A stretch of 64,000 nucleotides of DNA, taken from NCBI GenBank assembly GCA_964589625.1, contig CAZPSH010000006.1, positions 21,922 to 85,921 on the forward strand. Reading direction: 5' to 3'. Every line of letters begins with the position of its first letter. Positions within the stretch are counted from its first letter, which is position 1. Both the position numbers and the translations under genes were made by a program. The stretch comes from an uncultured Thermoanaerobaculia bacterium (lineage in GTDB: Bacteria; Acidobacteriota; UBA4820; DSQY01). Under the pieces are notes generated by a model that was not told the origin of the DNA, searched no databases, and worked only from the letters and a program-made list of their open reading frames with translations. This document shows, in pieces, positions 4,787-41,970 of this stretch.

Positions 4787-5575
4787 ATGCGCATCCTCCG
4801 GCACGCCCTGGCCGCCGCGGCGGTCTTTGCGTCGGTCTCCGTCCTCGCCGGGACCCGCGAGGACATCCAGAGGCTGGACCAGCAGATGGCCGCCCTGGGC
4901 GCCCGCCTCCAGCAAGTGGAATCCCAGCTTCCACTCTTGCAGAAGGCTCTCCAGGACGTCTCCGCCCGGGTGGAGGCCCTGGGACGGGCCTCCCAGACGG
5001 CTGACATCCGCTCGGACCTGGAGGAGATCAAGAGGCGCCTGGAACAGGTTCAGGAGCAGGTCTCCGCCCTTCAGAGCCGTCAGGAACTCCCGGCCGCCCC
5101 GCCGCTCGTCGCACCGCCGGCGATCTTTGAAGCGCCCCAAGGGGAGACCCCGTCGGGGGCGGCAGCCCTTCTCCCCCTCGCGCAGGAGGCGCCGGGGGCG
5201 CCGGCCGCCCCCGACCTCTACGCCCAGGCCTACGCGGATTACCTCCAGGGCAAGTACGACCTCGCCCTGGAGGAGTTCCGCCGTTTCCTCCAGGCGTTCC
5301 CGGACGAAGGGCGCGCGGGAAACGCTCAGTACTGGATCGGGGAGTGCCTCTACAGCAAGAAGTCCTTCGGAGAGGCCAAGGAGGCCTTCCGGACGGTTCT
5401 TGACCGCTACCCGAAGAGCCCGAAGGTTCTTGCGGCCCGGCTCAAACTCGGGTTTTCCCACCTCGCGCTCGACGAGACGGCCCAGGGGATGACCGCACTC
5501 CGACTCCTGATCCAGTCCGCGCCGGATTCGGACGAGGCCGCCATCGCCCGGGAACGCCTCGCCCGGATCCAGTAG
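4787..5575 (+). CDS. cpoB: Tol-Pal system protein CpoB/YbgF (coiled-coil plus TPR)
   Basis: Signal peptide, coiled-coil region, C-terminal YbgF TPR motif (AQYWIGECLYSKKSFGEAKEAFRTVLDRYPKSPKV..KLG). Confidence 0.8.
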   Translation: MRILRHALAAAAVFASVSVLAGTREDIQRLDQQMAALGARLQQVESQLPLLQKALQDVSARVEALGRASQTADIRSDLEEIKRRLEQVQEQVSALQSRQELPAAPPLVAPPAIFEAPQGETPSGAAALLPLAQEAPGAPAAPDLYAQAYADYLQGKYDLALEEFRRFLQAFPDEGRAGNAQYWIGECLYSKKSFGEAKEAFRTVLDRYPKSPKVLAARLKLGFSHLALDETAQGMTALRLLIQSAPDSDEAAIARERLARIQ

Positions 5576-5887
5576 CCCCTCTCCGCCCTTTCGCGGTCCA
5601 CCCTCTCCGGAGGCGTCCAGACCGTTCCAACCTCGACGTGACCAGGGGCGGTGAATGGGTTCTTAAACCCCGCGTTCTCTTGCTCGGTCACAAGGAGGAC
5701 CCGGCGTGTGACCGCCGGCGTTTCTATGCCCCGGGGGTCCGCCGCCGCACGACGTCCCCTTTTTGCCACCTTCCCCTTGCGCGGCCGGGCGCGGGGCGTC
5801 GTATCCTGGGCGGGTGCCCCGGCCCGGAGCGTGAACTCGACAGGAGGAACCCTGGACCGCTACGAAACGTTCCGCGACGAGGATCTC

Positions 5888-6397
5888 ATGGCCCGCACCG
5901 CGGGGGGGGACCGCGACGCGCTCGGTACCCTCGTACGGCGCCACCAGGTGGCTGTTTACTCCATCGCGCGGAAGTACCTCGGCGACCGGATGGAGGCCGA
6001 GGACGTGGCCCAGGACGTATTCCTGCGGCTGTGGGAGGCGTCACCGCGCTACCGTCCCGAGAAGCCCCTGCCCGCGTACTTGAGGACAATCACCGTGAAC
6101 CTCTGCCTGGACCGGCGTCGCCGGCCTACCCTCTTTTCCATCGTGGACCCCGGAGCCATCCCCGGCTCCCCGGACCCCGAGGCCGGCGTGCGGTCCGCCG
6201 AGCGTGAGAAGGCCCTGATAAGGGCCCTGGCCGTCCTCCCGCCTGCCCAGAGAATGGCCATCGTGCTCTTCCACCTCGAAGGACTTCCCGTCGCGGAGAC
6301 CGCCCGTCTTCTTGAAATCGGCGTCAAGGCCGCCGAATCCCTCCTATCCCGGGGCCGCCGCGCCCTCCGGGAGAGACTGGCGGGGATCTTGGACTGA
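5888..6397 (+). CDS. ECF (extracytoplasmic function) sigma-70 family sigma factor
   Basis: Sigma region 2 (YSIARKYLGDRMEAEDVAQDVFLRLWE) and region 4 (LPPAQRMAIVLFHLEGLPVAETARLLEIGVKAAESLLSRGRRALRE). The start could instead be GTG 5830. Confidence 0.85.
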   Translation: MARTAGGDRDALGTLVRRHQVAVYSIARKYLGDRMEAEDVAQDVFLRLWEASPRYRPEKPLPAYLRTITVNLCLDRRRRPTLFSIVDPGAIPGSPDPEAGVRSAEREKALIRALAVLPPAQRMAIVLFHLEGLPVAETARLLEIGVKAAESLLSRGRRALRERLAGILD

Positions 6398-6458
6398 CGC
6401 GCTCACCGACCGAAGGATTTCCCTCTCCGGTACGTTATGCCTGTTCTAAGGAGGCCCC

Positions 6459-6917
6459 GTGAGGTGCGCTGAAGCCCTGAAGAAGATCGACCGGACGGCT
6501 CTCGGAGGACCCCACCCGACAAGGTCGGACTTCGCGGAGCACCTGGCTTCCTGCTCTGGCTGCGCCCGGGAGTTCCGGCGGCAGGCGGCCTTGCTGGACC
6601 TCCTCGGCCACAGCGATCCGCCGTGGGAGATCCCCGACCTAGCTCCCGCCGTCCTACGACGCCTCCCTCCGCGCCGGACCTTCCGCGACGGCCTGCGGCG
6701 GGTCGCCGCGGCGGCCCTGGCTCTGGCCGCCCTCGGCCTGGGGTACTTCCTGGGCAGGGCTTGGGCGCCCGCCGAGCCGCCCTCCACACCCTCCACGGCC
6801 ATGATGGCCGCCTACGGACAGGCACTCGCCGATGAGCCTTTCGGATCCCTCGAAAGGGCCTATTCGGGCCTCCGGCCCGGGGTCCAGACCGCCTCCGACA
6901 AAAGGAGTGGTCCATGA
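6459..6917 (+). CDS. Anti-sigma factor, zinc-finger (HxxxCxxC) type with a single transmembrane helix
   Basis: GTG start with RBS AAGGAGG; motif HLASCSGC; central hydrophobic helix (AAAALALAALGLGYFLG). Immediately downstream of the ECF sigma gene. Confidence 0.7.
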   Translation: MRCAEALKKIDRTALGGPHPTRSDFAEHLASCSGCAREFRRQAALLDLLGHSDPPWEIPDLAPAVLRRLPPRRTFRDGLRRVAAAALALAALGLGYFLGRAWAPAEPPSTPSTAMMAAYGQALADEPFGSLERAYSGLRPGVQTASDKRSGP

Positions 6918-7366
6918 GACACCGGTGGGTTACGCTTGCGCTTCTGGCCTCCCTCGCCCTCAACGTGGGGCTCCTCGTTGCCCTGATCCAGAGGGCTTCG
7001 CATCATCCCCACCCCATGTCCCCGCCCGATCTGGGTCTCTCCCCGGCCCTCCAGGCCCGGTGGGACGAAAACTTCGAAGGCTTTCGCGTCCGGATGGACG
7101 CGCTGAGGGCGGAAATGCGGGCGGAGCGCGAGAAGATGCTCGCCCTGCTGGCCTCGGATGACTGCACGCCGGAGGCCCTCTCCGACCACCGGGCCCGGCT
7201 CCAAGACCTGACGGATCGCCTGTTCCGGACCGTCACGGCGCATCTCCTCGAACAAAAGGAGCTTCTCGACCCGGACCAGCGCGAGCGGTTTTTCGCGGCC
7301 CTGCGCAACCACATGCCCGACTCGGTGGGCATGTCCCCCCATTCCCCAAAGGAGAAACGACCGTGA
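6914..7366 (+). CDS. Periplasmic Spy/CpxP/ZraP-like protein (heavy-metal / envelope-stress family)
   Basis: Signal peptide, His-rich stretch (SHHPHPMSP), LxxxQ-type helical repeats (LDPDQRERFFAAL). ATG overlaps the anti-sigma stop. Confidence 0.6.
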   Translation: MRHRWVTLALLASLALNVGLLVALIQRASHHPHPMSPPDLGLSPALQARWDENFEGFRVRMDALRAEMRAEREKMLALLASDDCTPEALSDHRARLQDLTDRLFRTVTAHLLEQKELLDPDQRERFFAALRNHMPDSVGMSPHSPKEKRP

Positions 7367-8757
7367 AGCACCGCCAACTCTTCCTGCTCTGTCTCCTGCT
7401 GGCACCGGCCCTCCGCACCGGAGCGGAAGGGGAGGGACCCCCGGCGGGTCCCACCGGCTCTCCGCTCACCTTGCGTGAGTGCGTCGGGATCGCGGTCAGC
7501 CACAACCCGGACGTCGGCGCCATGCTTCATGCCGGGCGGGCCTCCATGGCACGCATCGGACAGAGCCGGGCCTCCTACTGGCCCACCCTCACGGCCACCG
7601 GGGGGTTGTCCCGATCCTACGCCGAAGCCCAGCCTGGCGCCTTAGGCCGCTCCGACGCCGCCACGAGTTCCAGCGGAATCCTCTCTACCCAAGTTACGCT
7701 CCTCGACGGGGGTCAGAGAAGGACGGAGGTCCAAGGGACCGAGGCAACGTACCAGGCCGCCGACTGGAGGTTCAAGGCCACCGTCCAGGACTTGGCCGTG
7801 GAGGTGGCCACGGCCTACTACAATCTTCAGGGCTTCCTTTGGGACCTCGAGGTGGCGCGGGAGATTCTGTCCCAAAGCACGGCCCACCTGGAGATGGCCC
7901 AGGCCAGAGAATCCGTGGGCCTCGCGCCGAGAGCCGACGTGCTCCGGGCGGCCACCGCCGAGGCGGACGCTCGACTGGGCGTGGTCCAGGCCGCCAGTGA
8001 CGTGTCTCGGGGAATGTCGGCCCTGGCGATCCTCATGGGGCATCCCGCGGACGCGCCCATCGAGATCGCGGGCGTCTCCCGGGAAGGGGGCCTGCCCCCC
8101 GTCCCGGACTGGGCCGAGGGACGGGCCCGGGCGCTGTCCGCCATCCCCGAAGTGAGGGCGGCGCGGGCGTCAGAGGAGGCCTATCTCTTCACGTGGAAGG
8201 CCGCCCGGTTCTCCACGCGGCCGACGGTCACCGCCGACGGGTCGGTGGGGCTTCTGGACGCGGGGCGCTGGCCGGACAGAGACACGTGGAGCGTGGGCCT
8301 CTCGGTTCGGATTCCACTCTTCACGGGCTTCTCCAAATCCTGGAGCGTGGCGGGGGCCAGGGCCGGTTACGAAGGCGCCAGGGAGGAAACCCGAAGCGCC
8401 CTTCTTGCCGCGGAAAAGGCTGCTTTCACGGCGCGGATTGGGATTGAGGAGTCCCTCCAGGCGGTGGGCGCCGCGGAGGCTTACCTGAGAAGCGCGGAAG
8501 AAAACGCCCAGGTGGCCGAGGGGCAGTACCGGGAGGGCCTTGGCTCCATGCTCGACCTGGTGGACGCCACCGCCTCCCTGCAGAGCGCTAAGCTGCGCTT
8601 GGTGAGGGCGCGCCTCCAGGCGCTCCTCTCCGACCTGCAGTGGGGCCGCGCCACGGGGATCGATCTCCTGGAGGGCATCACCCTGCCTTCCACTGCGCTC
8701 ACGCTGTCACGCAAAACCGGCTTGGCCGGCACAACCACGGGGGACCCAACGCCATGA
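7363..8757 (+). CDS. TolC-family outer membrane efflux protein
   Basis: 464 aa, signal peptide, the two repeated halves typical of OEP/TolC; GTG start overlaps the upstream stop. Confidence 0.85.
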   Translation: MKHRQLFLLCLLLAPALRTGAEGEGPPAGPTGSPLTLRECVGIAVSHNPDVGAMLHAGRASMARIGQSRASYWPTLTATGGLSRSYAEAQPGALGRSDAATSSSGILSTQVTLLDGGQRRTEVQGTEATYQAADWRFKATVQDLAVEVATAYYNLQGFLWDLEVAREILSQSTAHLEMAQARESVGLAPRADVLRAATAEADARLGVVQAASDVSRGMSALAILMGHPADAPIEIAGVSREGGLPPVPDWAEGRARALSAIPEVRAARASEEAYLFTWKAARFSTRPTVTADGSVGLLDAGRWPDRDTWSVGLSVRIPLFTGFSKSWSVAGARAGYEGAREETRSALLAAEKAAFTARIGIEESLQAVGAAEAYLRSAEENAQVAEGQYREGLGSMLDLVDATASLQSAKLRLVRARLQALLSDLQWGRATGIDLLEGITLPSTALTLSRKTGLAGTTTGDPTP

Positions 8758-9836
8758 GGCCCAGAACCCTTCGAAGCACTCTCGTATTCACCCTCCTCCT
8801 TGTTGTCACCCTCGTGGGCGCATGCAAGGAAGCCGGGGGGGGCAAGACCCCCCAGGGCAGCATGGTTCCCGTCAAGATCATGGACCTGCCCGCCCAGGTC
8901 ATCGCCACGGGGACCGTTACTCCGAGAGTCGGGGCCCAGGTCAAAGTGGGCCCGCGCGTCTCGGGCCGGCTCGAGCGCCTCTTCGTGCAGGTGGGAGACC
9001 GCGTGACCCGGGGACAGATCCTCGCGATCCTGGAGCAGCGGGACCTCCAGGCCAACGTGGACAAGGCCAGGGCGGCACTGGCTTCGGCCGAGGCCACGGC
9101 CACCTACTCCGAATCCAATTACGTCCGGCTCAAGGAGCTCCTCCCCAAGGGCTACGTCTCCCAGGACGCCGTGGACGCCGCCTTGCGGAATTTCGAGCAG
9201 GCCCGGGCCGACGCGAAGAACGCGAAGGCCCAACTCGATTTCGCCAAGGTCCAGCTCTCCTACGCCACCGTCACGTCGCCCATCGACGGAATTATCGGAT
9301 CCGTCTCCACCCAGGAGGGGGAGACGGTGGCGGCGAGCCTGAGCGCGCCCACCTTCGTAACGGTCATCGACCTGAGCCGCCTGGAGGTGGACGCCTATGT
9401 GGACGAGGTGGACATCGGCCGGGTCAAGGTCGGACAGGCCGCGACCTTCACCGTGGACGCATTCCCGGACAAGACCTTCAACGCGGTGGTGGAGGCCATC
9501 TACCCGCAAGCCGTCATCCAGGACAACGTCGTCAACTACGCCGTCGTCCTCGGCATTCAGGACGCCTTCGAGGGACTCCTCCGGCCCCAGATGACCGCCT
9601 CCGTCTCCATCACGCTGGACACCACCAAGGGTGCCTTGGTCGTGCCCGTCCGCGCCATCAAGCACGAGGGCGGGAAGGCCTTTGTCCAGATCCCCCAGGG
9701 GAAGGGTCTCACGGCGCGCCCGGTGACCCTTGGACGGGAGTCGGGCGACTACGTCCAGGTCAAGGCCGGGCTGTCCGAGGGCGACAAGGTCTTCGTGCCG
9801 GGCGCCGCCCGAACCAACGACACCGGCGGGATGTGA
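8754..9836 (+). CDS. Efflux membrane fusion protein (MacA/HlyD family)
   Basis: Lipoprotein-like N-terminus (LVGAC), coiled-coil hairpin, beta-barrel and MP domains; ATG overlaps the TolC-like stop. Confidence 0.85.
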   Translation: MRPRTLRSTLVFTLLLVVTLVGACKEAGGGKTPQGSMVPVKIMDLPAQVIATGTVTPRVGAQVKVGPRVSGRLERLFVQVGDRVTRGQILAILEQRDLQANVDKARAALASAEATATYSESNYVRLKELLPKGYVSQDAVDAALRNFEQARADAKNAKAQLDFAKVQLSYATVTSPIDGIIGSVSTQEGETVAASLSAPTFVTVIDLSRLEVDAYVDEVDIGRVKVGQAATFTVDAFPDKTFNAVVEAIYPQAVIQDNVVNYAVVLGIQDAFEGLLRPQMTASVSITLDTTKGALVVPVRAIKHEGGKAFVQIPQGKGLTARPVTLGRESGDYVQVKAGLSEGDKVFVPGAARTNDTGGM

Positions 9837-9846
9837 GGCGGAGGCC

Positions 9847-10524
9847 ATGATCGAACTGGGCGGAATCGCCAAGACCTACCTCACGGGCGGCGTCGAGACT
9901 CCCGTCCTGCACGGGATCGACCTGACCATCGAAGAAGGGGAGTTCGTGGCCCTCATGGGCCCATCGGGGACCGGAAAGAGCACGCTGATGAACATCCTCG
10001 GTCTTCTGGACCGGCCCTCGGCAGGCACATACCGCTTCGGAGGCCAGGACCTTACAACCCTCGGGGACGACGCCCTGTCCGCCATTCGGAACCGTCGAAT
10101 CGGCTTCGTCTTCCAACTGTTTCACCTCCTGCCCAGGGTCAACGTCCTCCAGAACGTGCTCCTACCCTTTCTCTACACCGAGCCCTACCCCCCGGACGCC
10201 CGCGACCGCGCCTTGGGCCTCCTCAAACGGGTGGGCCTGGAGGACCGTGTCGGCTTCAAGCCCAACGCCCTGTCCGGCGGCCAACAGCAGCGGGTGGCCA
10301 TCGCACGGGCTCTTGTCAACGAGCCCGCCCTTATCCTGGCGGACGAACCCACGGGGAACCTGGACTCGGTGGCGACCCAGGAGATCCTCGCCATCTTCGA
10401 CCGAATCCACAGGGAGGGGCGAACCATCGTCATGGTCACCCACGAACCCGAAGTGGCCTCCCACGCTTCGCGCGTGATTACCCTAAAGGACGGACGCGTC
10501 GCGAGCGACGTCCGGCCGGCCTGA
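9847..10524 (+). CDS. ABC transporter ATP-binding protein (MacB/LolD-like)
   Basis: Walker A GPSGTGKST, signature LSGGQQQRVAIARAL, Walker B ILADEPTGNLD. Confidence 0.9.
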   Translation: MIELGGIAKTYLTGGVETPVLHGIDLTIEEGEFVALMGPSGTGKSTLMNILGLLDRPSAGTYRFGGQDLTTLGDDALSAIRNRRIGFVFQLFHLLPRVNVLQNVLLPFLYTEPYPPDARDRALGLLKRVGLEDRVGFKPNALSGGQQQRVAIARALVNEPALILADEPTGNLDSVATQEILAIFDRIHREGRTIVMVTHEPEVASHASRVITLKDGRVASDVRPA

Positions 10525-10536
10525 GGTGCGCCTTCC

Positions 10537-11823
10537 ATGAACCGCGCCGAGACCGCCCAGCACCTTTCCTTGAGTTCGGGCCGCGCCCGGCCGGCCCTTT
10601 CCCCCTTCCGCATCCTACGGCTGGCGCGCCACGCCGCGGGCGCCCTCTGGTCCCAGAAGGGCAAGGCCTTCCTCATGCTCCTCGGGACCGCCGTCGGCAT
10701 CATGCTCCTCACGGCCGTCGTGGGCCTGAGCGCCGGCGTGGAGCAGAGAATCTCCCAGATCATGGCCACCTTCGGTCCCCGCTCGATCATGGTCTTCGCC
10801 GGCGGCGGGAGGATGATGGGCCCCCCGGGGAGGTCCGCTTCCTCTTCCACCCTCCGCCTCGAGGACGCCGTCGCGGTCCGGGAGCGGTTCTCCGAGGAGG
10901 CCGTGACCTGCGCCGGGCTCTTCCAGAGGGATGTCCCCATCAAGGCCGGAGAGGCGGAAGCACAGACCGGCGTGACCGCCGCCGACCCGGCCTACTGCCA
11001 GACCTTCGATTGGTACGTGGCAACGGGGGAGCCCCTCGACGACGACGACGAGAGGACCCTGGCGAGGCGCTGCGTCCTGGGAACCACCGTGGCTCGGAAC
11101 CTCTTCGGTGACGAGGATCCGGTGGGCAAGCGGATCCTGGTCAACCGGGTCCAGTTCACGGTGAAGGGCGTTCTCCAGTCCCGGGGAACGAATTCCATGG
11201 GGTTCGATATGGACGACCGCATCTGGGTCCCCCTTTCGACGGGGATGCGGCGCGTCTTCCGGGTGGACGCCATCCGGTTCATCCGCCTCAGGGTCCGGGA
11301 AGGCTACGAGGTCCCGGCCGTTGTGCAGGGCGTGACGGCGATCCTTCGACAACGGCACCACGTCCGGGAGGAAGAGGAGGACGACTTCCGGATGCGCACC
11401 CCGGAGTTCATCGCCCAGCGTGTCCGGAGCATGGCTCGGACCACCCAACTCGTGGGGGGCGCTCTGACCCTGGTGGCGCTCCTCGTCGGGGGAGTGGTCC
11501 TGATGAACATCCTCCTTCTGTCCGTCAGCGAGCGCGTGCCGGAGATCGGGCTCAAGCGGGCCCTGGGCGCGTCGAGGCGAGACGTCTTTTCCGAATTCCT
11601 GGTGGAATCGGTGATCGTGAGCCTCCTGGGCATGGCCTTGGGGGTCCTTCTTGGACTTATCCCCGTGCTGGCCATCCCCAAGTTGTTCCCCATGATGCCC
11701 ATGGCCGTGAGTTGGAAGACCTTCGCCTACTCGGCCCTCTTCTCCACACTGGTGGGACTCGTCTTCGGCGTCCAACCCGCGCGCCGGGCCGCCAAGCTCG
11801 ACCCCGTGGAGGCCCTAAGATGA
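10537..11823 (+). CDS. ABC transporter permease, FtsX/MacB family (permease 1)
   Basis: 428 aa: N-terminal TM helix, large periplasmic domain, C-terminal FtsX 3-TM bundle. Confidence 0.85.
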   Translation: MNRAETAQHLSLSSGRARPALSPFRILRLARHAAGALWSQKGKAFLMLLGTAVGIMLLTAVVGLSAGVEQRISQIMATFGPRSIMVFAGGGRMMGPPGRSASSSTLRLEDAVAVRERFSEEAVTCAGLFQRDVPIKAGEAEAQTGVTAADPAYCQTFDWYVATGEPLDDDDERTLARRCVLGTTVARNLFGDEDPVGKRILVNRVQFTVKGVLQSRGTNSMGFDMDDRIWVPLSTGMRRVFRVDAIRFIRLRVREGYEVPAVVQGVTAILRQRHHVREEEEDDFRMRTPEFIAQRVRSMARTTQLVGGALTLVALLVGGVVLMNILLLSVSERVPEIGLKRALGASRRDVFSEFLVESVIVSLLGMALGVLLGLIPVLAIPKLFPMMPMAVSWKTFAYSALFSTLVGLVFGVQPARRAAKLDPVEALR

Positions 11824-11912
11824 TTTCGGATTTTCGATTTTGGATTTCGGATTGGAGGCGGGAAGTGGGGTTGGTAGCATCCATCCCAAATCCCCAATCC
11901 CAAATCCCAAAT
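11822..11912. repeat. Heptamer-repeat element: four copies of GATTTCG (GATTTCG GATTTTC GATTTTG GATTTCG) and about 30 nt downstream the inverted counterpart (CCAAATC CCCAATC CCAAATC CCAAAT)
   Basis: Read directly, starting at the stop codon of permease 1 and ending at the RBS of permease 2. The arms are imperfectly complementary (potential hairpin). The same heptamer array recurs at 41938-41970. Confidence 0.6.
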
Positions 11913-11932
11913 GTCTCCGGAGGGCTCCCTGG

Positions 11933-13156
11933 ATGAATCTGGCCCGCACGCTCGTCATCTCCTGGGACGTCCTCATGGGCCACAAGTTGCGGACATTGCT
12001 GTCCAGCACGGGCATCGCCATCGGCGTGGCCGCCGTCGTCATCATGGTGGGGGCTGGAAAGGCGGCGGAGGAGGAGGTCGTCGGAAAGGTCCGCAGCATG
12101 GGCACCAACCTCCTCGTGGTCCAGGCCGGACGGTTCCAGAACCTGGGCGGACGGACCCGCCAGGTCGCCACCTTCACGACCCTCACCCAAAGAGACGTCC
12201 AGGCCCTCTCGCGCCGGATCACCGGAATCGAGCGCATCGCCGGGGTGTACCAGAGGAGCGCCGTGGTCCGGTACAAAGGAATCCGCACTCGAACCGACGT
12301 GGCGGGGGCCGAGCCTGCCCTCTTCCAGATCCGGGGCATCTCCGCCGCGAGCGGCCGCCTCTTCACCGACCTGGAACAGAGATCTTTGGCCCGTGTGGCG
12401 GTCGTGGGCCCCACGGTCGCGTCCAACGTCTTTTCCGGCGCGGACCCCGTGGGCAGATCCGTGGAGATCAACAGGATCCTTTTCAAGGTCGTGGGCGTCA
12501 CCTCCCCGCGGGGCCAGGACCTCAGCGGGGACGACCAGGACGACGTGGTGTACGTCCCGCTCTCCACCGCCATGGTGCGCGTCTTCCACGTCACCTACCT
12601 CCAGGGCATCCTGATCCAGGCCGAAAGCGCCGAAGCCATGGCCTCCCTTCCCGACCAGATCGCTCCCGTGCTCCGGAAGACCCACAGGCTCAAGCCGGGC
12701 AAGGAGAACGACTTCACGATCCAGGACCAGGCCCAGCTGATGCGGTCCGAGCAGGACACCAGCCAGGCTTTTACGGTCCTCGTGGGGAGCGTGGCTGGCG
12801 TCTCCCTTTTCACGGGAGGCGTCGGCATCCTCGCCGTCATGCTGATCTCTATCCGGGAAAGGACCCGGGAGATCGGCCTTCGGAGGGCCCTGGGAGGCCG
12901 GAGGAGGGACATCCTGGGGCAGTTTCTCCTGGAGGCGGGCAGCCTGGCCGCCATGGGAGGACTCTCGGGGGTCCTCGTGGGCCTGGGGGGCACCTGGCTC
13001 ACCGTGCACCTCATGCGATGGCCCCTCGTTTGGCCCTGGAGCGCCACCGCTTTTGCCCTCGGGCTTTCGGTGACCATGGGAGTCGCCTTCGGCCTCTATC
13101 CCGCCATGAAGGCCGCCCGGCTGGAACCGGCCGTGGCCCTCCATGCCGCCGGCTGA
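11933..13156 (+). CDS. ABC transporter permease, FtsX/MacB family (permease 2)
   Basis: About 407 aa from ATG 11933; same architecture as permease 1 (paralog). Confidence 0.85.
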   Translation: MNLARTLVISWDVLMGHKLRTLLSSTGIAIGVAAVVIMVGAGKAAEEEVVGKVRSMGTNLLVVQAGRFQNLGGRTRQVATFTTLTQRDVQALSRRITGIERIAGVYQRSAVVRYKGIRTRTDVAGAEPALFQIRGISAASGRLFTDLEQRSLARVAVVGPTVASNVFSGADPVGRSVEINRILFKVVGVTSPRGQDLSGDDQDDVVYVPLSTAMVRVFHVTYLQGILIQAESAEAMASLPDQIAPVLRKTHRLKPGKENDFTIQDQAQLMRSEQDTSQAFTVLVGSVAGVSLFTGGVGILAVMLISIRERTREIGLRRALGGRRRDILGQFLLEAGSLAAMGGLSGVLVGLGGTWLTVHLMRWPLVWPWSATAFALGLSVTMGVAFGLYPAMKAARLEPAVALHAAG

Positions 13157-13328
13157 CCCCGAAGGGGGACCGGCCCATGGAAAGAGGCCCCATGGATGGT
13201 GGGGGATCGACTTCGTCCATGGCAGCCGCAACGTCCACCTCGGCACCCCACCCGAGGGCTCGTCCGAGCTTCCAGCCCGTGTGGGCTCCGCAGGACTCCA
13301 CCGTTCCCCACACCCAGAGGAGACCATC

Positions 13329-13856
13329 ATGAAATCGCTTCAAGCCCGGCTCCTTCCTTTCGTCCTGGCCTGCCTCGCTCCCCTCCTCGCCTGCCGAGAG
13401 GCCGGGGGAACCCGCGTCGCGGTCATCGACATGGAGCGAATCGCCTCCGACTCCGCCGCGGCCAAGGCCGCCTTCGCCGAAGTGCAGGCTCTTTCGGAGA
13501 CAGCCCAGGGACAATTGTCTGGGCTCGCCCGCGAGATCCAAAGGGCCGAAGAGGCCGGGCGCATCCGGCCCGCCGATCTTGAGGCCATGAAGAGGCGGTG
13601 GATCGCCTTGAGGCAGGAGGCCGAATCCCAAGTGGGAGCCCGCCGCGAGGCGGCCGCAGCGGAGATGGAGGACGTCCTTCGCCGCGCCCTTGAGGAACTC
13701 GCTTCCGAGAACGGATGGGACTTGGCTCTCCGGAAGCAGGACGGAGTCGCCTGGTCCAAGAGGGACCTCGACGTTACGGCCCCCGTCGCGAGAAGGATGG
13801 ACGAGATCTGGGGCCGAACCCACAAGGACCGAGCCAGAGGGCCAGAGAACCCGTGA
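13329..13856 (+). CDS. Periplasmic chaperone Skp/OmpH family
   Basis: Signal peptide plus coiled-coil Ala/Glu/Arg-rich helical body of about 175 aa; weak family-level call. Confidence 0.55.
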   Translation: MKSLQARLLPFVLACLAPLLACREAGGTRVAVIDMERIASDSAAAKAAFAEVQALSETAQGQLSGLAREIQRAEEAGRIRPADLEAMKRRWIALRQEAESQVGARREAAAAEMEDVLRRALEELASENGWDLALRKQDGVAWSKRDLDVTAPVARRMDEIWGRTHKDRARGPENP

Positions 13857-13917
13857 AACCGGGAGGTCATGGGCTCCGGCGCTCCTGGGCGCTCGGATTC
13901 GTGGGCTCGCACCTCTC

Positions 13918-13941
13918 GGCGGAGAGGGGGGGATTCGAACC
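13918..13941 (-). repeat. Duplicate of the 3'-terminal 24 nt of tRNA-Ser (att-like direct repeat or pseudo-tRNA fragment)
   Basis: GGCGGAGAGGGGGGGATTCGAACC is identical to the 3' end of the tRNA-Ser gene 118 bp away, then diverges; it cannot fold into a cloverleaf. Confidence 0.6.
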
Positions 13942-14058
13942 TACAAGGACCCTGCGTTTCAAGGCCGCCTACGGTTCCCGGGGTGGGGGGTCAGCGGAGC
14001 GACCGAAGGGAGCGGAGCGCATAGGGGGGAGGACGGGACGGCCTTCCCCCTTGCTTCT

Positions 14059-14152
<94 letters not shown>

Positions 14153-14303
14153 GCGGAAAGGGTGGCCGCTTCTATTATAGGCGGGACCGAGCCTGCGCGT
14201 CAACGAAGAGAGGCTCTTGCGGCCCCTCCCGGTCGGTGGGATCCAGAGAACGCGAAGGGGGCGGGCCGAAGCCCGCCCCCTATGGGTGGCGACGAAGAGC
14301 AGG

Positions 14304-18830
<4,527 letters not shown>

Positions 18831-28187: not shown

Positions 28188-28321
28188 CCTCGTGCCGTTA
28201 GTAGGCGAGTCCGTGAGTACGTGAGTAGGGCAACGATCTCTGCCCCAGCGCCGGACTCGGTTTTACTCCCCTACTCCCCTACTCTCCTACTCACCTACTC
28301 ACCTACTCTCCTACTTTGGTA

Positions 28322-41937: not shown

Positions 41938-41970
41938 CTCCGAAATCCGGAATCCGAAATCCGAAATCCA
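41938..41970. repeat. Second copy of the GGATTTC heptamer array (minus-strand reading: GGATTTCGGATTTCGGATTCCGGATTTCGG)
   Basis: Starts 4 nt after the guaA stop codon, in the guaA-dnaE intergenic region; same unit and same position relative to a stop codon as the 11822 element. Confidence 0.55.

Follow-up and report, generated by a model that had tools for sequence, protein, structure and literature searches.

A regulatory triad with a CnrX-like sensor adjoins a MacAB-TolC-type pump with two permeases in Acidobacteriota and Planctomycetota

The DNA analysed here (the window) is a 64,000-nucleotide (nt) stretch from an uncultured Thermoanaerobaculia bacterium (contig CAZPSH010000006.1), with a G+C content of about 67%. 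Its closest relatives are metagenome-assembled genomes of Acidobacteriota, and its nearest genome match with a class name belongs to the Thermoanaerobaculia. Eight consecutive genes on the + strand (approximately 5831-13156) encode an extracytoplasmic function (ECF) sigma factor, an anti-sigma factor, a PF13801 protein, a TolC-family channel, an adaptor, an ATP-binding cassette (ABC) ATPase and two permeases. Here we describe the gene content, homologies and gene order of this cluster and the linkage of its regulatory triad (the first three genes) to its pump in other genomes, and we weigh what the pump may assemble from and what may switch it on.

Results

Eight genes in close succession

The features of the cluster are as follows, with the E-values of the supporting model matches in brackets.

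5831..6397, + strand: ECF sigma factor, ECF20-derived and ECF281-like, start uncertain within 5831-5888 (Pfam Sigma70_r2, 6.4e-22; Sigma70_r4_2, 2.8e-14)
6459..6917, + strand: single-pass zinc-finger (class I) anti-sigma factor (NCBIfam anti-sigma model NF052375, 5.6e-9; C3...H28-x3-C32-x2-C35)
6914..7366, + strand: CnrX/NccX-like periplasmic sensor of family PF13801, anchored in the membrane at its N-terminus and bearing two LTXXQ-like motifs (Metal_resist, 9.2e-15)
7363..8757, + strand: TolC-family outer membrane channel (Pfam OEP, 5.9e-47, two repeats; NCBIfam TIGR01844, 3.7e-46)
8754..9836, + strand: MacA-like adaptor, a membrane fusion protein (NCBIfam RND_mfp, 3e-63, and MacA, 2.9e-47; Pfam HlyD_D23, HlyD_3 and Biotin_lipoyl_2)
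9847..10524, + strand: ABC ATPase, a separate gene (NCBIfam MacB ATPase-domain model, 1.1e-76; LolD, 1.5e-68)
10537..11823, + strand: MacB-type permease 1, P1 (MacB_PCD, 6.3e-34; FtsX, 2.5e-19; NCBIfam MacB, 2.9e-51)
11822..11912, no strand assigned: two inverted heptamer arrays, GATTTCG x4.6 then ATCCCAA x4.3, which can pair as a hairpin
11933..13156, + strand: MacB-type permease 2, P2 (MacB_PCD, 1.8e-38; FtsX, 1.5e-19; NCBIfam MacB, 2.4e-55)

A preliminary description of the locus had named all eight genes, and matches to Pfam and NCBIfam models bear out each identity; the three stop/start overlaps that it located are also exact (ATGA at 6914-6917, GTGA at 7363-7366 and ATGA at 8754-8757). 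AAGGAG ribosome-binding sites precede the first two of these. The sensor and TolC genes overlap by 4 nt, as do the TolC and adaptor genes, and the remaining gaps before the permease pair measure 61, 10 and 12 nt. A pattern scan predicted no intrinsic terminator within the eight-gene cluster, which makes one transcript plausible, and an Rfam search of 5400-14400 returned tRNA-Ser as its one match. Transcription of the eight genes as a single unit is thus a plausible prediction from their arrangement. The 109-nt gap between the permease genes, which bears the hairpin of the inverted heptamer arrays, speaks against a continuous unit. This hairpin was not called as a terminator, since its stability is that of shuffled sequence (z = -0.04) and no T run comes after it. 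The element is absent in locus L002, where the permease genes abut.

A MacB-type exporter with a separate ATPase

The ATPase is a protein of 225 residues with a Walker A motif, the signature LSGGQQQR and a Walker B motif visible in the translation. The adaptor is probably a lipoprotein, as judged from a lipobox (...LVGAC) in its translation. Permease 1 has four transmembrane helices and a large periplasmic core domain, and the hydropathy of the permeases fits a periplasmic domain of approximately 230 residues flanked by a single N-terminal helix and a membrane block at the C-terminus. The start of permease 2 is most likely ATG 11933. The two permeases are paralogues (33% identity, 3e-54 by BLASTP). 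Scores on the MacB equivalog model (174-258 bits) lie far below its cut-off of 966, which neither permease reaches; together with the separate ATPase and the two permease genes, these scores indicate a variant of MacB rather than a MacB orthologue. By homology, the predicted pump is a MacAB-TolC-type (type VII ABC) tripartite exporter with a separate ATPase.

The resemblance to Escherichia coli MacAB-TolC extends to a MacA-like adaptor, a TolC-family channel, the MacB periplasmic core with its four-helix FtsX domain and a MacB-like ATPase. The adaptor, the ATPase and the permeases gave their best scores on the E. coli MacA and MacB models. Unlike in E. coli, however, the ATPase is a polypeptide of its own, there are two paralogous permeases instead of one homodimeric MacB, and the adaptor is probably a lipoprotein. 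The combination of a separate ATPase and permease with a membrane fusion protein is also found in the cyanobacterial glycolipid exporter DevBCA-HgdD and in YknXYZ of Bacillus, and DevBCA likewise uses a TolC homologue. These systems differ from the window pump in that each has one permease gene and a different regulation, and the DevC model scored only 1e-3.

The two permeases form a conserved pair

The permease genes were compared across 13 genome loci, from Acidobacteriota, Planctomycetota, Omnitrophota, Nitrospirota, Alphaproteobacteria and unclassified metagenome-assembled genomes. The order was P1 then P2 at all 13, the first gene always scoring higher on permease 1 and the second on permease 2, and each cluster had one ATPase gene. 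The pairwise distances of P1 and P2 proteins from the same loci were correlated (r = 0.86 over 120 pairs). Both paralogues carry complete periplasmic core and FtsX domains and were equally conserved in every region, indicating that neither permease is a decaying copy. A fixed order combined with correlated distances is the pattern of an obligate pair, and the most likely assembly is therefore a heterodimer of P1 and P2 with two ATPase copies. We consider such a heterodimer quite likely. The same assembly had been proposed in the preliminary description, and it is strengthened by the finding that an old permease pair has been kept together in a fixed order.

Two points count against the heterodimer: the assembly is read from genetic evidence only, and the deep P1 and P2 clades of a neighbour-joining tree had bootstrap values of 9-23%. 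In this tree the P1 and P2 orthologues formed two mirrored groups, E. coli MacB fell among single-permease systems, and LolC and LolE were the most distant. Given the weak bootstrap, the case for the heterodimer rests on gene order, reciprocal scores and the distance correlation. Exceptions to the pairing were also found, with a P1-type gene lacking P2 in locus L005 and on the contig carrying P0042. The P0042 gene is a lone P1 homologue (65% identical) without adaptor, ATPase or partner permease, surrounded by genes for large PKD/cadherin-repeat proteins and for polysaccharide export.

Reviews of the type VII family list homodimers (MacB, FtsX) and fused forms (BceB, YbbP), name LolCE as the sole heterodimeric system and list no adaptor-coupled heterodimer (PMC5985334, PMC8277102). 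Homodimerization of each window permease with the shared ATPase and adaptor would let one operon supply two pumps that differ in substrate range, an arrangement that the homodimeric state of MacB and FtsX and the intact, equally conserved domains of both paralogues would suit. The strict adjacency of the genes, their invariant order and the correlated distances instead match the obligate-pair pattern of LolC and LolE, and we regard separate homodimers as unlikely.

The composition of the pump had also been called LolCDE-like. At the level of genes this is apt, because two different MacB-fold permeases accompany one ATPase gene in both systems; the permease sequences themselves are MacB-like rather than Lol-like. 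Both lie far nearer to E. coli MacB (distance approximately 1.6) than to LolC or LolE (approximately 3.0), models of LolC/E matched them at 1e-8 or weaker against 1e-51 and 1e-55 for MacB, and the lolCE model returned 37 and 22 bits against a cut-off of 362. If the ATPase and permeases were nevertheless the host's LolCDE-type machine for extracting lipoproteins or lipids, and not an efflux pump, the shared stoichiometry would be explained. Lol has no adaptor or outer membrane channel, however, whereas the window pump has both: a gene for a MacA-like adaptor always lies alongside, and in the window's lineage the operon includes a TolC gene. Model scores and tree distances favour MacB, and a Lol identity, which we consider highly improbable, was rejected.

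A two-permease composition had further been thought unusual for a TolC-coupled system. This holds among characterised pumps: in the literature searched we found no adaptor-coupled heterodimeric MacB-type pump, although absence there is no proof. It does not hold in genomes. Two adjacent MacB-type permease genes were present at 42 of the 76 loci with at least one full-length permease match, a sample that was drawn by similarity to permease 1, is rich in Acidobacteriota and does not give population frequencies. An adaptor gene lay just upstream at 23 of the 42 paired loci, and 13 of them had an adaptor, an ATPase and two permeases. Adjacent MacB-type permease pairs of a second family were seen in loci L048-L080 (Acidobacteriaceae, Terriglobales); these pairs form their own two tree groups and often have an adaptor gene upstream, and no ATPase gene was detected beside them.

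The regulatory triad resembles ECF281 and, in part, CnrYXH

The sigma factor consists of regions r2 and r4, with no further regions by Pfam, and its second-best match in the PDB is CnrH (4cxf, 1.3e-15), the founder of ECF20, classed as ECF20/ECF291. Its start had been placed at ATG 5888, which an alignment of seven orthologues shows to be an invariant internal methionine. Homology with these orthologues runs approximately 10 to 20 residues upstream of this codon, and D16, L19 and M20, upstream of or at it, are invariant. Because conserved residues lie upstream of the first ATG, the start codon is probably GTG or CTG, and GTG 5831 is possibly the one used. An AGGAGG sequence (5843-5848) precedes the in-frame CTG 5852.

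The anti-sigma factor had been recognised by an HxxxCxxC motif, and this motif (H28-x3-C32-x2-C35) proved invariant in 12 orthologues. The window protein stays under the threshold of the Pfam zf-HC2 model (14.2 bits, E = 0.047), while its positional orthologues exceed it (25-45 bits versus 22.2). Beyond the motif, C3, G95 and G99 are invariant in the 12 orthologues and W81 and Y135 nearly so; G95-x3-G99 forms a GxxxG motif in the transmembrane helix, and a conserved G-S-L-x-x-A-Y motif lies on the short periplasmic tail.

The third protein had been described as a His-rich relative of Spy, CpxP and ZraP, to be checked for Metal_resist and LTXXQ matches. Both were found, Metal_resist at 9.2e-15 (55.3 bits versus a threshold of 29.2) and LTXXQ at 2.2e-4, and the relationship was revised. 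A profile built from 12 positional orthologues was run against solved structures and matched full-length CnrX, including its N-terminal membrane anchor, at 1.6e-16 (3zg1) and NccX at 2.4e-14 (4clv), compared to 1.3e-7 for Spy and 1.3e-4 for ZraP; the window sensor by itself matched Spy at E = 0.063. With full-length CnrX and NccX as its best matches, the protein is better described as a membrane-anchored CnrX homologue. In the anchor, L16 is invariant and S13 and N17 are nearly so. The N-terminal His cluster is not conserved among orthologues, and the His-rich stretch (HHPHP in the window) was dropped as a metal-binding signature.

The metal ligands of CnrX are His42, His46, Glu63 and His119, with Met123 recruited for nickel and cobalt (PMC6851896). 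These positions were mapped by aligning the 12 pump-linked sensor orthologues with CnrX; in its N-terminal part, the alignment may be off by one or two residues. Of the five positions, that of His119 (H110 in the window) is the sole conserved one, being nearly invariant. The window sensor has His at the positions of His42 and His119, Pro at His46, Gln at Met123 and Phe at Glu63, with a Glu one residue later. It thus lacks the five-ligand site of CnrX, which tells against metal as the cue. In four of the five sensors from Planctomycetota-type loci without a TolC gene, a C-P-L-H motif places His at the His46 position; in the fifth (L169), Ser replaces the Cys. N-terminal His and Cys are both absent from the orthologues of Bryobacteraceae and Terriglobia. 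Metal binding by the sensor family is therefore possible but not supported as a family property. Of the metal-sensing role first suggested, the homology to CnrX stands and conservation of the CnrX ligand set does not; metal sensing is a putative role.

The order of the triad fits ECF281, an ECF20-derived group in which the +1 gene encodes a zinc-finger anti-sigma factor and the +2 gene a PF13801 protein, and for which a link to heavy-metal stress has been proposed (Casas-Pastor et al. 2021, PMC7826278). The three window genes are arranged in just this way, and the likeness is one of layout. It differs from the published description in its pump, as the main text of that paper mentions no linked MacB-type pump. 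No experimentally studied member of ECF281 was found in the literature searched.

The analogy to CnrYXH-CnrCBA, the nickel/cobalt system of Cupriavidus metallidurans, had been drawn from the triad of sigma factor, anti-sigma factor and periplasmic sensor. It is stronger than first proposed in that the sigma factor is related to CnrH and the sensor is a membrane-anchored CnrX homologue; in both systems, moreover, the regulatory genes adjoin a tripartite efflux pump, which CnrYXH controls in C. metallidurans. It fails in other respects. The anti-sigma factor is a class I zinc-finger protein at +1, unlike CnrY, which is small and of class II; the pump is of ABC type VII, unlike CnrCBA, a resistance-nodulation-division (RND) pump; and, unlike in CnrX, one of five ligand positions is conserved in the sensor family. 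With its zinc-finger anti-sigma factor and ABC pump, the locus is not a CnrYXH-CnrCBA system.

The triad recurs upstream of the pump in two phyla

In 12 further loci of Acidobacteriota and Planctomycetota, one of which (L001) is not independent, the triad immediately precedes the pump genes, whose order is adaptor, ATPase, P1, P2. They are listed below with the position of the TolC gene.

Window and L001 (the window's own sequence, a Logan contig): Acidobacteriota; TolC gene between sensor and adaptor genes
L002, L003, L164 and L165: Acidobacteriota; TolC gene between sensor and adaptor genes
L005 and L009: Thermoguttaceae and Pirellulaceae (Planctomycetota); no TolC gene in the operon
L168, L169 and L170: metagenome contigs with the layout of L005 and L009; no TolC gene in the operon
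L008 and L010: Bryobacteraceae and Terriglobia; no TolC gene between sensor and adaptor genes

Since no flanking genes are otherwise common across the phyla, the juxtaposition of triad and pump appears to have been selected. The regulatory link proposed in the preliminary description gains from this recurrence, and the sigma factor probably controls the pump. The L005 operon lacks permease 2, and a repeated element comes after its permease 1. There the same open reading frame (ORF) of approximately 155-175 residues, beginning MPARSPAGRYTGWSTLEPPYG, occurs twice on the - strand (11010-11477 and 14425-14949); it is probably a repeated mobile element or marks an assembly join that breaks the operon.

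Control of the pump by the sigma factor has evidence against it as well. Several close orthologues of the pump occur without the triad (L004, L166 and L167, 52-58% identity), many triads of ECF sigma factor, zinc-finger protein and PF13801 protein are not followed by a pump (L084, L085 and L119 among them), and the sigma genes of 12 triad loci revealed no ECF-type promoter motif in common. The last result comes from a scan of 300 nt upstream of each sigma gene for bipartite motifs (a 5-mer, a spacer of 15-18 nt and a 4-mer), in which the best motif was present in three of the 12 loci, no better than in shuffled sequence. An alignment of the upstream regions of the window, L164, L165 and L002 yielded no promoter information. 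An ECF-like sequence in the window (GGAAC-N17-CGTT at 5846-5873) was put aside as a promoter, for it lies within the conserved N-terminal coding region of the sigma gene. A metagenome scan with the sigma alignment returned, among its best 600 matches, mostly unrelated ECF sigma factors on short contigs; it brought to light triads that lack a pump but gives no frequencies.

Triads without pumps and pumps without triads indicate that the linkage is lineage-specific. Together with the undetected promoter motif, they are also what would be seen if cassette and pump were mere neighbours, the cassette controlling other genes and the pump being regulated separately. That account is improbable in our judgement, because order and strand are the same in Acidobacteriota and Planctomycetota loci that otherwise have no common neighbours, and because the 4-nt overlaps tie the sensor gene to the TolC gene and the TolC gene to the adaptor gene in the window.

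What the sensor may respond to

Several orthologous operons have genes related to metals or stress within or beside them. In L008 a ChrA chromate transporter gene, divided between two reading frames, separates the sensor and adaptor genes; in L010 one comes after permease 2. A gene for an S-adenosylmethionine-dependent methyltransferase is inserted in the L008 and L170 operons. The stretches inserted or appended are L008 5799-7757, L010 12461-13687 and L170 5089-5853. Regulators of the ArsR/SmtB family (HTH_5) flank L168, L169 and L170, and L168 also adjoins genes for Fur, DtxR, catalase and desulfoferrodoxin. A 45-residue ORF recurs beside L168 and L169. These neighbours are circumstantial and point loosely to metal(loid) or oxidative stress. 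A metal(loid) signal is a possibility that we hold tentatively.

In the main alternative, the same architecture would answer a general envelope or xenobiotic stress, such as misfolded periplasmic proteins, antimicrobial peptides or lipophilic toxins. The PF13801 protein would then act as a CpxP/Spy-like feedback inhibitor or chaperone, and the pump would remove peptides or amphiphiles, as MacAB and YknXYZ do. The weaker matches of the sensor to Spy, ZraP and LTXXQ would fit this, as would the unconserved ligand set and the Bryobacteraceae and Terriglobia sensors without N-terminal His or Cys. The window neighbours pal, cpoB and skp are envelope genes. A parallel that also favours envelope stress comes from Bacillus subtilis, where a zinc-finger anti-sigma factor holds sigma-W and the MacB-type yknWXYZ genes belong to the sigma-W regulon. 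Known substrates of the MacB family are peptides, toxins, macrolides and glycolipids (PMC5985334). Against an envelope cue, E-values put CnrX and NccX nine orders of magnitude ahead of Spy, the His119 equivalent hardly varies, and ChrA (L008, L010), ArsR/SmtB-type (L168-L170) and Fur and DtxR (L168) genes lie near orthologous operons. We find general envelope stress a somewhat doubtful cue.

Flanking genes and repeat elements

Three further features lie near the cluster.

5701..5727, + strand: between cpoB and the sigma gene, a hairpin resembling a terminator, with a T-rich tail (pattern scan)
13332..13856, + strand: Skp/OmpH-like periplasmic chaperone gene, 175 nt past permease 2 (Pfam OmpH, 4.7e-15)
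14059-14152, - strand: tRNA-Ser(GCT), between the skp-like gene and rpoC

The 5' neighbours of the operon encode a D-Ala-D-Ala-ligase-like protein, a GNAT acetyltransferase, Pal (OmpA family) and a tetratricopeptide-repeat protein of the CpoB/YbgF type; on the 3' side are the skp-like gene (+), tRNA-Ser(GCT) (-) and rpoC/rpoB (-). The order ddl-GNAT-pal-cpoB-operon-(skp-like)-rpoC is retained in L164 and L165 (69-76% permease identity), indicating a stable chromosomal locus and not an island. At the position of the 5701..5727 hairpin, clear GC hairpins with T runs behind them are present in L002 and L165. This is weak evidence, and the hairpin may end the tol-pal transcript and leave the sigma operon with its own promoter. 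The skp-like gene may be co-transcribed with the operon and was left outside the module; a gene of similar size comes after permease 2 in L164 and L165. A near-consensus sigma-70 promoter precedes the tRNA gene (14203-14174, - strand; TTGACG, 18 nt, TATAAT; 11 of 12 matches).

Heptamer arrays like those between the permease genes occur elsewhere in the window. An intergenic inverted pair of tandem arrays with units of 7-8 nt lies at 28196-28315, with CGTGAGTA x4 facing TACTCCCC/TACTCACC x6.5, and a lone TCCGAAA x4.4 array lies at 41939-41969. The heptamer pattern matched 15 times in the window, compared to a mean of 6.3 in shuffled sequence. The arrays may be a lineage-specific repeat element of the repetitive extragenic palindromic (REP) type.

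Discussion

We lean towards a picture in which a CnrX-like sensor cassette and a heteromeric MacAB-TolC-type pump form one operon. CnrY of the CnrYXH system is docked by its C-terminus into the CnrX dimer, with further interaction between the transmembrane helices (PMC6851896). By analogy, the sensor and the anti-sigma factor of the window would form a complex through their membrane helices and the periplasmic tail. At rest, the anti-sigma factor would hold the sigma factor at the membrane, with one contact to the sensor between the transmembrane helices (the Asn of the sensor anchor and the GxxxG of the anti-sigma factor) and a second through the GSLxxAY motif of the anti-sigma periplasmic tail. 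A periplasmic cue, possibly a metal or metalloid, would alter the contact between sensor and anti-sigma factor, and the freed sigma factor would transcribe its own operon, pump included. Permease 1, permease 2 and two copies of the ATPase would then assemble with the adaptor and TolC, and the pump might expel its substrate from the periplasm or the outer leaflet by MacB-style mechanotransmission, here with two non-identical periplasmic domains.

A bolder version would make these loci a conserved family of obligate-heterodimer MacB-type tripartite pumps in Acidobacteriota and Planctomycetota, with a division of labour between the two periplasmic domains like that of LolC and LolE, switched on by a CnrX-like sensor and a zinc-finger anti-sigma factor in response to a metal(loid) or metal chelate that is then expelled from the periplasm. 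Taken as a whole, this version is speculative and we rate it as rather unlikely. The parts are of known kinds; what is new relative to the literature searched is the conserved combination of triad and pump and the adaptor-coupled heteromeric permease pair.

The hosts are uncultured Acidobacteriota and Planctomycetota, and the practical impact is thus limited until a tractable member is found. If the picture is true, it would provide a concrete output for the ECF281 group and a case in which a CnrX-type sensor is paired with a zinc-finger anti-sigma factor and not with CnrY. A conserved adaptor-coupled heterodimer would add a topology to the type VII ABC family and, if true, would offer a natural system for studying how asymmetric periplasmic domains drive export through the symmetric MacA/TolC duct.

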